Positions 42,449 to 47,044 of a DNA stretch of 57,704 nt are shown here, one piece after another. The stretch spans positions 1-57,704 of the forward strand of contig MU271338.1 of assembly GCA_021432655.1 (NCBI GenBank), in the 5' to 3' direction. Source of the DNA: Atractiella rhizophila. Taxonomy: Eukaryota. The notes under the pieces were generated by a model. It had not been told where the DNA came from, searched no databases, and saw nothing but the letters and a program-made list of their open reading frames with translations. Position 1 is the stretch's first letter. Each line of letters opens with the position of its first letter. The position numbers were made by a program, and so were the translations under genes.

Positions 42449-42525
42449 GTGATGATCATGACGGAAACCGGCGTTCAGTCTTCATGACTTAGATGCTCAG
42501 TTGATTCTCACCTGAATGGATCTGA
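42449..42525 (+). ncRNA. Candidate box C/D snoRNA
   Basis: Box C GTGATGA (42449-42455) and CTGA at 42512 and 42522. Internal GGCGTTCAGTC and TGACTTAGA are complementary to the recalled LSU rRNA segment GRCTGAACGCCTCTAAGTCA. No terminal stem. Confidence 0.25.
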
Positions 42526-43060
42526 GGTAAATATTCAAATATTCCTTATTCCATCACTCTATATAAGATTTATTGGCTAGATAGAACAGGGATAGAGATA
42601 TGGATGAAAAACTTGAAGACAAACATGTATTTTAATATTTTCGACCAATATTTACGACCAAATCGAGCAGATAGAGTTTATAATGCTCAAGGACTCTCCT
42701 TGTTTTCCATTACAGGCTCTTTCTTCTCTCATTAACTGAAAGCTGACACACCTCCCACTCCAAACCATCTCCTTGCCCGCCGTTCCATCCCTGTCTCTTA
42801 CTGAGACTTCCACATCGACTGCTAACTGTTAGAAAAGACCAGAGGCAGTGTGGTGCCCGCAAACAGCCGGATTTGAGGATTTGTAAGGCAAGGAAGGTCA
42901 GAACGCTGGAAGTGCGATTGCCAAAGTGAAAGTGGCAAGTGCTTGCGGCGTTGTGGCAATACTGAATACTCCCTTTTCCACCACCAGCTTCGTGCTCGTA
43001 TCCTTTCCCCTGCAACACTCCAGCTGTCCCCTTTCTTTCAACTCTTCTTAACTGCCCACA

Positions 43061-45363
43061 ATGGGTCGCCTAGCCGTACGTCTTTCTTCGTACTCTGAAC
43101 GCACCTCATTCGCCTCTCGGTTGGTCAACAGGAAATGCAGCGCAAGCACCTCGAACAGCTCATGGGCCCAGAAGCCATGGGCGTCATACAGGCCGATATC
43201 AAGTTCTGGGACCCAAAAGTCTGCCGCAATTTCCTCTGCGGGACATGTCCCCACGACCTTTTCACCAACACCGTTCGTGCAGTTCCCCCTTGCTTCCCAT
43301 CTTGCGAGTAATTAGAGGAACGCGGTGTATGAATGGGCTGGTTGTAGAAAATGGACCTGGGACCGTGTCCAAAGTCTCATAATGCACGGTTAAAGGACGA
43401 ATTTAAGGCTGCACTGGCAGATCCGGATAATGCGCCAGTGGGAAGGGGAGAGATGGTTGGTTTGCAACAGGTGCGTCGCTTGTTTTGTATGAGAACTGGA
43501 AGTGGGTTTCTTTTGCGTTCGGAGAACGAGACAAGAAGGGACGTCTGAGGGAGGACACAGATGAGGGGGGAGGAGTGCTTTGATTCGCAGAGAAAACAGA
43601 GCAGAATGTGCCGCCTCCTTCTGTGGCAACTCATACTTTTATTCCTCTCTTGGATGAGACTCGTTCCATCTTAACGTCCAGTCTGGAAACCGTCGCCTCC
43701 TTGTTTTGCAATTTGGATGATTTCGAGACCTGCTGAAAGCGTTATGGAATAGAATGTAGAGTGGGAAGTAGTCAGGTTGGCGAATGTCGCGGATCACAAA
43801 CGGGAGACCTATCCACATTTAGTCTCTTCTTCATTCTTTACATGTCTTGCAACTTTGCACGAAGTTGAGCATGCATCTTGCAATGTTCAAGCGACATTTG
43901 TCCAGTGTTCTATTAACAATTTCTGCACGGATAGTTGCCTTTCAGCTGCATATGCTGTGAAAGTTGGGATTGTACATGGGCGAGAGCGTCCATGCAGCTT
44001 TTCAGAAGTAAAGATAGAGTCTGCCTGATTAACAACGACTTCCAAACGGAAGTCCAGCTGGCACCAGGTCGTTTTCGGTTTACCTACAGGATATCTACCC
44101 TACCTGTTGAATACATTTCAACGGCGCAGAGTACATGGAGACGAGGCCGTATTTCCAAATGGAAGGTGAAAACGTCAGGCTTTTAGGGATGGTTTTTTCC
44201 AGCTGCTGTTATGGTGTTTTCTGCCAAATTGTTACACCAAAGCAGATACTTCGGCGGTTGGATCTACGAGCATGATAGATTGTCTCAGCGTGCGCCGCCT
44301 GTAGGTAGACAGTGGCGTCATATCTGGAGTCAGGAATATGTTGCGAGGTAAAGCGTACTCCATATTGTTCGAATTGATAGAATGCGGAGGAGGATTTTTA
44401 GTTTGCCACATCGGGAAGTGAAGCAGACGAGGTATCCACTTTGAGAAATCTGACTGAAGATGTCAACGACAGCGAGCTTAGATGCAGGGGACATGATCTT
44501 CATTTATTTTATATTGATGAACTTCTTCCCTTCCTTACAATTTTACTACTCGTTATTGCCCTCGACCAACCCAATACTATCCTTTGGCTTTGCAAAACTA
44601 TTCATTCAGCTTCCATTTTTGACGACCCAAGGAGCCTGAAGTTAACAAATCACTTAACCAGGAATACGAACGTGCAATCCTGTCCTTTGTCGAAGAATGC
44701 GATCGTCGCATCCGCGGCTCACAACGAAGGTTGGAAAAGACGCCAGAGGAGAATAACAAGAGCACTGCGTTGATGAGAGAAATTGGGGAGATTCAGACTG
44801 CCCACGACCTGGCGATGCAAGAAGTGGAAACTCTTGGTAAGCCCTCTCTTCCCAGTCTTCCTTAACATTGCGCTCATCTGCGATTCCACCAATAGGTTCG
44901 CAAGGAAAGATTGATGAGTCAATGGCGGAACTTCAGAAAGCTGATGCTTTAAAGGCGGAGAAGCAGGAGAAGGAACGAGAGCTTCAAGCGTTGACAGAGA
45001 CAGCAGGAGCTTCAGGGCACCAGAAGTTGCGAGTGTGCGATATCTGCGGTGCTTATCTTTCAGTGCTGGATTCGGATCGTCGACTTGCAGATCACTTCGG
45101 AGGCAAGGTAACGTGCTTTCCGTCTTTGGGCTATTGAGAAAGCAGTCACAAATGAAAGACAGATGCACATCGGCTATCTTCAACTGCGTCAAACGATCGA
45201 GGAATGGCGAACTCGTGGTCCCCTCAACTTTTCTTCCATTGCTGGCGCGGGTACTGGTTCTGGCGCTGCGGCTGCTGCAGGGACGCCTAGCAAGGAAGAT
45301 GGGAGGAAGAGGGAAAGGGAAGATCGGGGTGACGACAGAGAAAAGAGAAGAAGAGTTGATTGA
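43061..45363 (+). CDS. LUC7: U1 snRNP protein Luc7
   Basis: MGRLA|EMQRKHLEQLMG, ZnF1 CRNFLCGTCPHDLFTNT|KMDLGPCPKSH, ZnF2 QKLRVCDICGAYLSVLDSDRRLADHFGGK|MHIGY, and a short R/D/E tail. Third intron is 43471-44661. Confidence 0.96.
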
Positions 45364-47044
45364 TTGTTTCCATGCACCTTTCTTCCAACTGTTGTAATCA
45401 ATTTTGGTATTGCGCACGTGACTATTTCTTCTCCGCGACATTCCTTTGAACAATTTACGGGCACCAGAACAGGGCAGTGAGGTTCCAAGAAGGAGCGCAG
45501 AATGGAAAGAAGAACAAGTTCTTTTGACTGTCTTCCTGCTCCGCGCTTCCGGAAACCAGAGAAATATATGGCTCTGAGTCCTTATTGAAGGAACCTCTCC
45601 TTCCATTATTTCTTTCGTTTACCGTATTGTGACACTCCTTTCTTGAAAGAAATGGGAGCTGCAAATGTAATTCGACTGTTGGAGCATTTCCGACTTTTCC
45701 TAAGTCCTATGGACTTCAGGGCTATCATCTCGATTCCTTCACTTCTACTCTACCATGTCCGTCTCTCGCGATCTGTAGCCATTGACGGAAATTGTAGAGT
45801 TCATTACTGCCGTCAGGGGAATTGTAATTGTAATTCACAGGGTTCGCTCTGTCTCCATCGTTTTCCTCCCTTGGCCTCAATCTCAACGATGGCCTTGTTC
45901 CCGACGCTTTCTGATGGTGGAAGGTCAAGAAAGGCTTCCCGAACTGTCCCACTCAAACGATCAATAATACGATCAATGACACAGAGTCCAGATCCATCTA
46001 GGAAGTTCGCCGACGATATCTGCGAGTGTGCATCGTGACCCTTTGAGTTGTTGGGATGAGGGGAACCTGATGAAACCCGATGGGACAGCCCCACTGATGG
46101 AGATGCTCACAAATGACAAATGAAGGTGCTCACCCTGATTCAGTGAGTTGTGAAAAGGGTCTGGGCAAGTCAGAAATAGCAACGTCTGGCTTTGCCTGAA
46201 AGCTCTATCTCCTGACCTGCCTTTGAACAAACTTGCTTTCCTCATGTTTTCATCGAAGCGGTATCGGTCCGTTCGACGCCTTTCAGAGGGAAGGGAAGCC
46301 GTCACGAGATTCCTGTGACAAATGACGAGAGACGGAGAGAAAGGATAAGGACCAGGCAGCAAAAATCTCACCCGTCACGTCAAAATCCTATCGAGACGGC
46401 ATTGACCTTGCAGGCAGACCCCTGCTTGGCTGTTCCTTCCGCTTGCTTCGAAGCTGTGCGCTGTTGACCGCGCCTGCAAAACAGGGCGTGAGCCGGACAT
46501 TCTTCAAGGAAACAGAACCCACAACTTTCTGCTCGTGTGCTTGCTCGGTCGCGTGGATGCTTCGCTGGAACCTTCGCTTTCTGATATCACTTCATCAGCA
46601 TGAGCTCTGATTATGCTGCAGACTGAATAACCATGAATGGTGCATGTTTACTGGGAGACACGACATGCTGACATCTGGATCTGCGTTGAAATTACATGTC
46701 TTCTGTCGTTCTTCTTGAATGAGCGTGTTTAAGACGCCTGACGAATCCCCAGATCCTTTCATTCGGTTCTGCGACCATTTGTTCCCGAATTAGTCCGATA
46801 AGAATGAGCAACGCGTCGAACACACGGAGGTTGGACGAACACCGACGAAATCTGCATGTGGGATCACTTAGCGCGAGGCTATCCAATATCGTTATCTCCC
46901 ACTTGTATTCAAGACTTTCTTGGCCTCATGGACCAATGTCAACGCTCCATAGCTATATAACATACACGTCTTTAACTCCAGAGCTTGGACTTGCCACCAG
47001 CCCTCCCCTTTCCTCCCACTTTCAAAGGCGCAATCACGTCTACA

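Follow-up and report, generated by a model that had tools for sequence, protein, structure and literature searches.

Unproductive splicing as a means of steadying the levels of splicing factors is well documented in animals and plants, and in fungi it is known mainly from the retention of a long intron in the gene srp2. Here we analyse the LUC7 gene of Atractiella rhizophila, a root-associated member of the Pucciniomycotina, which lies on the plus strand of a 57,704-nt stretch of DNA (contig MU271338.1 of assembly GCA_021432655.1, positions 1 to 57,704 of the forward strand), from here on called the window. The third intron of this gene is exceptionally long, RNA that contains it can be detected, and a 5′ splice site in its interior is joined to the normal acceptor in one assembled contig. 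We tentatively regard it as an instance, in a fungus, of a splicing-factor gene that is spliced unproductively, a reading to which we would grant somewhat less than an even chance. The evidence consists of one thin junction and an intron cover of ordinary appearance, and is a lead rather than a result.

Passages of Lareau and Brenner (2015, PMC4379411) describe in the fungal srp2 gene, the orthologue of SRSF5, a retained and stop-containing intron that falls within the longest 1-3% in Aspergillus and Neurospora, and that is a target of nonsense-mediated decay (NMD) in Neurospora. LUC7 of A. rhizophila resembles srp2 in being a fungal splicing-factor gene where a single intron is far longer than the norm, carries in-frame stops and is found in detectable intron-containing RNA. 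It differs in being another gene, in that NMD sensitivity has been shown for srp2, and in that the retention seen here amounts to 2-4% of exon depth in one run and is accompanied by an internal 5′ splice site.

Within the protein family itself, passages of Kenny et al. (2025, PMC11842720) report that the human LUC7L exon with a premature termination codon (PTC) and the alternative exon AE2 of LUC7L2 are auto- and cross-regulated, with a response to LUC7L and LUC7L2 shown in minigenes. According to the same passages, these autoregulated exons require a strongly right-handed donor, of the type with a G at position +5, left-handed donors are repressed by proteins of the LUC7L2 type, and fungi possess the LUC7L2 type only (PMC11842720). 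The likeness to A. rhizophila lies in the family and in an exon or splice site inside an intron that brings in a premature stop, whereas the internal donor described here is of the -1G/+5A class and is seen from its donor side only, in one contig; homology between the exons is not to be expected. The nearest fungal precedent is srp2 and the nearest precedent in the family the human LUC7L PTC exon, the latter a looser resemblance.

The elements of the locus on which the argument depends are the following:

43061 to 45363, plus strand: LUC7 coding region in six exons (43061-43075, 43132-43272, 43348-43470, 44662-44836, 44896-45107 and 45163-45363), from translation and the joints in RNA contigs.
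43471 to 44661, plus strand: intron 3, 1191 nt, GTGCGT...CCAG with GT..AG ends, phase 0, its joint 43470->44662 found in runs X23, X1 and X4.
43546 to 43548, plus strand: first in-frame stop codon (TGA) when intron 3 is retained, 78 nt into the intron, where the reading frame 43348-43548 ends.
44348 to 44353, plus strand: internal 5′ splice site GAG/GTAAAG (the slash marks the cut), joined to the normal acceptor at 44662 in an X5 contig.
44158 to 44384, plus strand: intron segment for which X5 has contigs of two haplotypes, at the same depth as the X5 exon contigs.

The six-exon model translates into 288 amino acids, a sequence identical to that of the database protein P0001, which its source names a LUC7-domain-containing protein of Atractiella rhizophila and for which a precomputed Pfam match to PF03194 is given. 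With 1327 relatives at E<=1e-5, both the domain and the full-length similarity place it in the LUC7 family. Twenty-three runs share words with positions 43000-45400, and four of them (X23, X1, X4 and X5) were examined, all as assembled contigs, which drop rare forms, so that an unseen joint is not evidence of absence. The five LUC7 introns are all backed by joints in RNA contigs, and a single 915-nt contig of run X4 holds the five joints together. This run is about 98% alike to the window and 15 of its 16 listed exon differences are synonymous, which makes it a related strain or species in which the same spliced mRNA is expressed.

The other introns of the gene measure 56, 75, 59 and 55 nt, and intron 3 thus has 16-22 times their length (1191 nt against 55-75 nt). 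An initial annotation of the window had placed this intron, of about 1.19 kb, at 43471-44661, and the RNA bears it out in position, phase and length; its companion statement, that most introns are of 45-65 nt, was compared with the introns of this gene only. The joint 43470->44662 occurs in three of the four runs, namely X23 (at depth 519), X1 and X4; the alignment lists it as 43467->44659, which is the same joint once the cut is moved by +3. This establishes both the long intron and the annotated protein, and most transcripts lose the intron through the donor at 43471 and the acceptor at 44661. A coding exon missed inside the intron was also considered and ruled out: the proteins of relatives align straight across residue 93/94, and no part of the protein is therefore missing.

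A minor fraction of the RNA keeps the intron. Contigs of run X23 span both of its borders, one of them (43451-43763) starting in exon 3 and reaching into the intron, the other (43734-44688) leading out of the intron into exon 4, at a depth of 13-20 against 519-664 for the exons, that is, 2-4% of exon depth. The alignment examined shows no X23 contig cover past the 3′ end of the mRNA, which hints that the intron cover is unspliced or intron-retaining RNA and not genomic DNA, polyadenylated retention and pre-mRNA being indistinguishable in these contigs. Translation of such RNA would run into the TGA at 43546-43548.

A second unusual form comes from run X5, where one contig of 180 nt (depth 2.4) joins 44321-44347 to 44662-44814. 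The joint 44347->44662 skips 314 nt with GT..AG ends and falls on the exact border of exon 4, and its short side matches over 25 letters with 0 mismatches; in the alignment it stands as 44321-44345 followed by 44660-44814, before the cut is moved by +2. Splicing is much likelier here than a deletion or a template switch, because of the exact exon border and the GT..AG ends. Upstream of this donor, the RNA may consist of an exon that begins at an internal acceptor, of the unspliced 5′ part of the intron, or of sequence from an internal transcription start. Between 43500 and 44340, six pyrimidine-rich AG sites were listed (at least 13 pyrimidines in 20), one of them at 44090, and each of the six, when combined with the 44347 donor, leads to a stop or a frameshift. 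As for what an internal start might yield, an N-terminally truncated protein is ruled out by the lack of any in-frame ATG after the last stop before the 44347 donor. Among database proteins, a search for truncated isoforms (shorter than 158 amino acids and matching residues 1-93) returned 301 matches, the best 74% identical and none from A. rhizophila.

We propose, tentatively, the following course of events. Splicing with the donor at 43471 and the acceptor at 44661 removes intron 3 from most transcripts. Beside the mRNA, two by-products arise, one keeping the whole intron, with a stop 78 nt in, and the other using the internal 5′ splice site at 44348 together with the normal acceptor. These RNAs may be degraded by NMD and so regulate the levels of Luc7, and the intron would plausibly have been kept because it permits the unproductive splicing of LUC7. 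Measured against srp2, the locus has an intron far above the norm of its gene, with an in-frame stop, and RNA that retains it. Measured against a poison exon, it has a 5′ splice site in use (44347->44662, different from the one first proposed) and an insert that brings in a premature stop when included. What the sequence and the contigs show at this locus is the intron itself, RNA from which it has not been spliced, a joint at an internal donor, and stops that come too early. We found no report in the literature of unproductive LUC7 splicing in fungi. If the proposal is true, it would add a second fungal case, now in a component of U1 that helps to choose 5′ splice sites. This would suggest that the logic of such control predates the SR proteins and reaches beyond them, and that an intron of unusual length in a short-intron fungus could serve as a mark of it.

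Several points weigh against this proposal. The internal joint comes from one contig of low depth (2.4) with a short side of 25 letters, the nature of run X5 as RNA is presumed by an automated guess, and a 3-letter microhomology (AGG) at the joint also fits a 314-nt deletion or a template switch. The intron cover of X23, at 2-4% of exon depth, is no higher than ordinary pre-mRNA might yield. A local RNA stem, described below, is predicted to form with a probability of at least 0.985 and may have some role. Finally, a long intron near residue 93/94 is lacking in all 14 intron-bearing relatives from metagenomes. These loci derive from a metagenome scan with P0001, where 44 loci were confirmed among 352 matched stretches, most of them cDNA-like and the best 70% identical over its best protein segment. 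Eleven of the 14 have no intron at residue 93/94, the other three have a gap of 58-61 nt near residue 99-101, and all are at most 62% identical. Judged from these sequences, the long intron 3 does not appear to be a general feature of fungi, and loci at such distances (<=62% identical) say no more than that.

One alternative is that the long intron is neutral and its minor RNAs are splicing noise. On this view it would have grown by a non-coding insertion, the 44348 site would be a cryptic donor used by error, the intron RNA would be pre-mRNA, and nothing in the locus would be regulatory. We hold this to be possible, if on the unlikely side. The low depth of the internal joint, in a single run, and the small share of intron RNA in X23 agree with it, as do the distant relatives without a long intron at this place and a stem whose occurrence lies within chance expectation. 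The intron also varies freely, in contrast to the exons, where nearly all the X4 differences are synonymous. At 44158-44384, run X5 holds two haplotypes, one equal to the window and the other with 10 substitutions and 2 gaps in 170 nt, and related strains therefore co-occur in the X5 sample. A further difference is found in the X23 intron contig:

43880 to 43933, plus strand: 54 nt absent from the X23 intron contig, with non-canonical ends (GC..TA), from the contig alignment.

With 1 letter of overlap at its ends, in a contig otherwise near-identical to the window, this gap probably marks an indel by which strains or alleles differ, and if so, that part of the intron would be dispensable.

Against a neutral origin stands the pressure on fungal introns to stay short, to which the other four of this gene (55-75 nt) conform. 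Moreover, passages of Lareau and Brenner indicate that long, unproductively spliced introns are known to persist in splicing-factor genes (PMC4379411). The lack of any mobile-element hallmark also counts against it. An insertion of a transposable element, which had been named as a possible cause of the intron length, was sought by blastn in the window, by Pfam on the reading frames and by scans for tandem and terminal repeats, and no hallmark was found. In detail, the window of 57.7 kb holds no further copy of intron 3 (blastn gave just matches of 12-19 nt at E>=0.7), the intron has neither tandem repeats nor long terminal repeats, and its seven reading frames have no Pfam match at E<=0.01. 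A single weak TUDOR match at E=0.07, below its own cut-off, is probably due to chance, and an open frame of 91 codons is about what we estimate chance to give for 1.2 kb in six frames. Nor was an RNA gene detected inside the intron: across 42500-46000 the sole Rfam match at E<=1 was a chance one, to an lncRNA in exon 5, and a crude scan of the intron for box C/D gave 0 candidates.

The remaining alternatives involve a stem in the middle of intron 3 and the splice-site-like sequences that it covers:

44078 to 44090, plus strand: 5′ arm of the stem, covering the acceptor-like tacAG/G and containing TTACCT (44080-44085), which is complementary to donors of the AGGTAA type; from inverted-repeat and stem scans.
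44298 to 44310, plus strand: 3′ arm of the stem, covering the donor-like TAG/GTAGAC (cut after 44304); from the same scans.
44108 to 44110, plus strand: stop codon TGA in the reading frame of an exon that would begin at 44090, from translation.

These elements are present as the initial annotation described them. The two arms form 13 uninterrupted pairs, 12 Watson-Crick and one G-U (92% complementarity in the repeat scan). The acceptor-like site (44088-44090) has 14 pyrimidines in the 20 letters upstream, and an exon from 44090 would read six codons, DIYPTC, before the TGA. The joints predicted from these sites, 43470->44090 and 44304->44662, are in contrast lacking in the contigs of X23, X1, X4 and X5, which drop rare forms; neither 44089/44090 nor 44304/44305 takes part in any joint of the four runs, and the X23 intron contig is unbroken across 44090, 44305 and 44348. 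Thus the broader claim of unproductive splicing within intron 3 has kept thin support, through the donor at 44348 joined to 44662, and the exon proposed for it, 44090-44304, is unsupported. The donor in use lies 43 nt downstream of TAG/GTAGAC, outside the 13-bp stem.

Compared with chance, this stem stands out only marginally. Of 300 dinucleotide shuffles of intron 3, 19 contained a stem of 13 bp or more with no more than one G-U pair, and the local fold of 44050-44380 has a z of -1.55, 8 of 100 shuffles folding equally well or better. Over the whole window, 9 such stems with a span of up to 450 nt were counted against 3.1 +/- 1.4 in 25 shuffles, so that anyone inspecting it would come upon several. 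A partition-function fold of 43440-44700 gives the pairs of the stem probabilities of at least 0.985, as it would for any 13-bp helix. The pairing of two splice sites is partly automatic, since a 5′ arm that holds ACCT...AGG brings a donor-like AGGT into the 3′ arm, and a stop codon in a non-coding insert of 215-258 nt is the chance expectation. The diverged X5 haplotype, the only diverged relative sequence at hand, carries a T>C change at 44300 that breaks the pair with A44088. This A belongs to the proposed AG acceptor, so that a compensating change would destroy the acceptor itself; column 44088 is outside the X5 cover, and the haplotype has lost one of the two, either a pair of the stem or the acceptor. 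Most likely, the 13-bp stem and the donor-like site at 44305 are incidental.

Local RNA stems that mask proven splice sites are known from the donor of MAPT exon 10 and from TSL2 of SMN2, where their effect has been shown by mutation. The predicted stable helix over splice-site-like sequences in LUC7 intron 3 is reminiscent of them, whereas the sites covered in MAPT and SMN2 are proven to be in use and those in the LUC7 contigs are not seen in use. Separately, we observed that the region of TTACCT (44076-44085), a motif like the 5′ end of U1, is complementary at 9 of 10 positions to 44346-44355, that is, to the donor really used (AGGTAAAGCG).

A poison exon of modified extent would take these elements into account. 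It would be a 258-nt cassette, from the acceptor at 44090 or another one to the 44347 donor, included in a minor isoform targeted to NMD, the stem hiding the acceptor and a decoy donor and thereby tuning inclusion. The 44348 donor is used, the X5 cover of 44158-44347 reaches exon-like depth, 44090 is one of the six pyrimidine-rich AGs with its stop after six codons, and in silico the stem is dominant, with a 5′ arm region able to pair 9/10 with the real donor. We nevertheless consider such an exon quite unlikely. Cassette exons are uncommon in fungi that use intron definition. No joint to 44090 or to any internal acceptor occurs in the contigs of the four runs, and one X5 contig reads unspliced straight through the 44348 donor. 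The statistics of the stem are weak, the available passages on srp2 show retention and no poison cassette exon (PMC4379411), and the donor is of the -1G/+5A class that, again in passages of the source, is repressed by LUC7L2-type proteins (PMC11842720).

The same donor class bears on feedback. The initial annotation had envisaged a feedback switch in which the stem competes with U1/Luc7 binding at the donor, and both internal donors are of the -1G/+5A class, which passages of PMC11842720 describe as repressed by proteins of the LUC7L/LUC7L2 type. If this extends from other kingdoms to A. rhizophila, these donors would be used less as Luc7 rises, the opposite of what homeostatic feedback calls for. 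We judge it very improbable that a premature-stop cassette exon (about 44090-44347) within the 1.19-kb intron controls the level of its own Luc7, with TTACCT pairing either with the decoy (13 bp) or with the real donor (9/10) and RNA structure competing with U1/Luc7 for the 5′ splice site. If true, feedback would here be based on RNA structure, in a fungus with otherwise short introns and intron definition.

The joint 44347->44662 could also be an intermediate of a removal in two steps, where 44348-44661 is cut first by way of the AG/GT at 44346-44349 and 43471-44347 afterwards, leaving a normal final mRNA. After the joint, ...gcgAG/GAATAC would regenerate a 3′ splice site at the border of exon 4, a second AG/GT with a better pyrimidine tract exists at 44303-44306, and nested introns removed consecutively are known in fungi as stwintrons (for example PMC5639578). 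The likeness to stwintrons or recursive splicing lies in an AG/GT inside a long intron and in the regenerated site; LUC7 intron 3 differs in that it has no visible second-step intermediate, no split splice signal and only a weak pyrimidine tract. The sequence upstream of 44347 is not pyrimidine-rich (below 13 of 20) and has no evident branch-site-like motif, the contigs contain neither a joint 43470->44348 nor any other intermediate, and the internal intron interrupts no splice signal, so that it would not be a strict stwintron. Such a route seems to us very doubtful.

Least credible of all is the cassette as first drawn, of about 215 nt (44090-44304) whose acceptor and donor pair with each other in the 13-bp stem as a feedback switch sensitive to Luc7 and U1: stem, acceptor-like site, donor-like site and stop are all there and the stem is predicted to form, but the donor used is 44348 and not 44305, outside a statistically unremarkable stem whose pair with the A of the AG acceptor is broken in the diverged X5 haplotype by 44300 T>C, and GTAGAC lacks +5G and can pair with U1 at fewer positions than GTAAAG does. 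Our preferred reading thus remains unproductive splicing of intron 3 through retention and the 44348 donor, held with the reserve expressed above.

A few further observations concern the same gene. Intron 3 contains another inverted repeat:

44157 to 44170, plus strand: arm (14 nt, 93%) whose partner, 44605-44618, lies close to the 3′ end of the intron, from the inverted-repeat scan.

It links the middle of the intron with a site some 45 nt upstream of the normal acceptor and matches the 13-bp stem in quality save for one mismatch; beside it lies an 18-nt repeat of 78% (44171-88/44626-43). One of the nine stems counted in the window, of 13 bp and of the perfect type, occupies 45224-45236/45347-45359 in the final exon of LUC7, its 3′ end lying directly ahead of the stop codon. 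Finally, the donor of intron 5, AAG/GTAACG (45108-45113), has no G at +5, unlike the other four LUC7 donors, and is still spliced in three runs.

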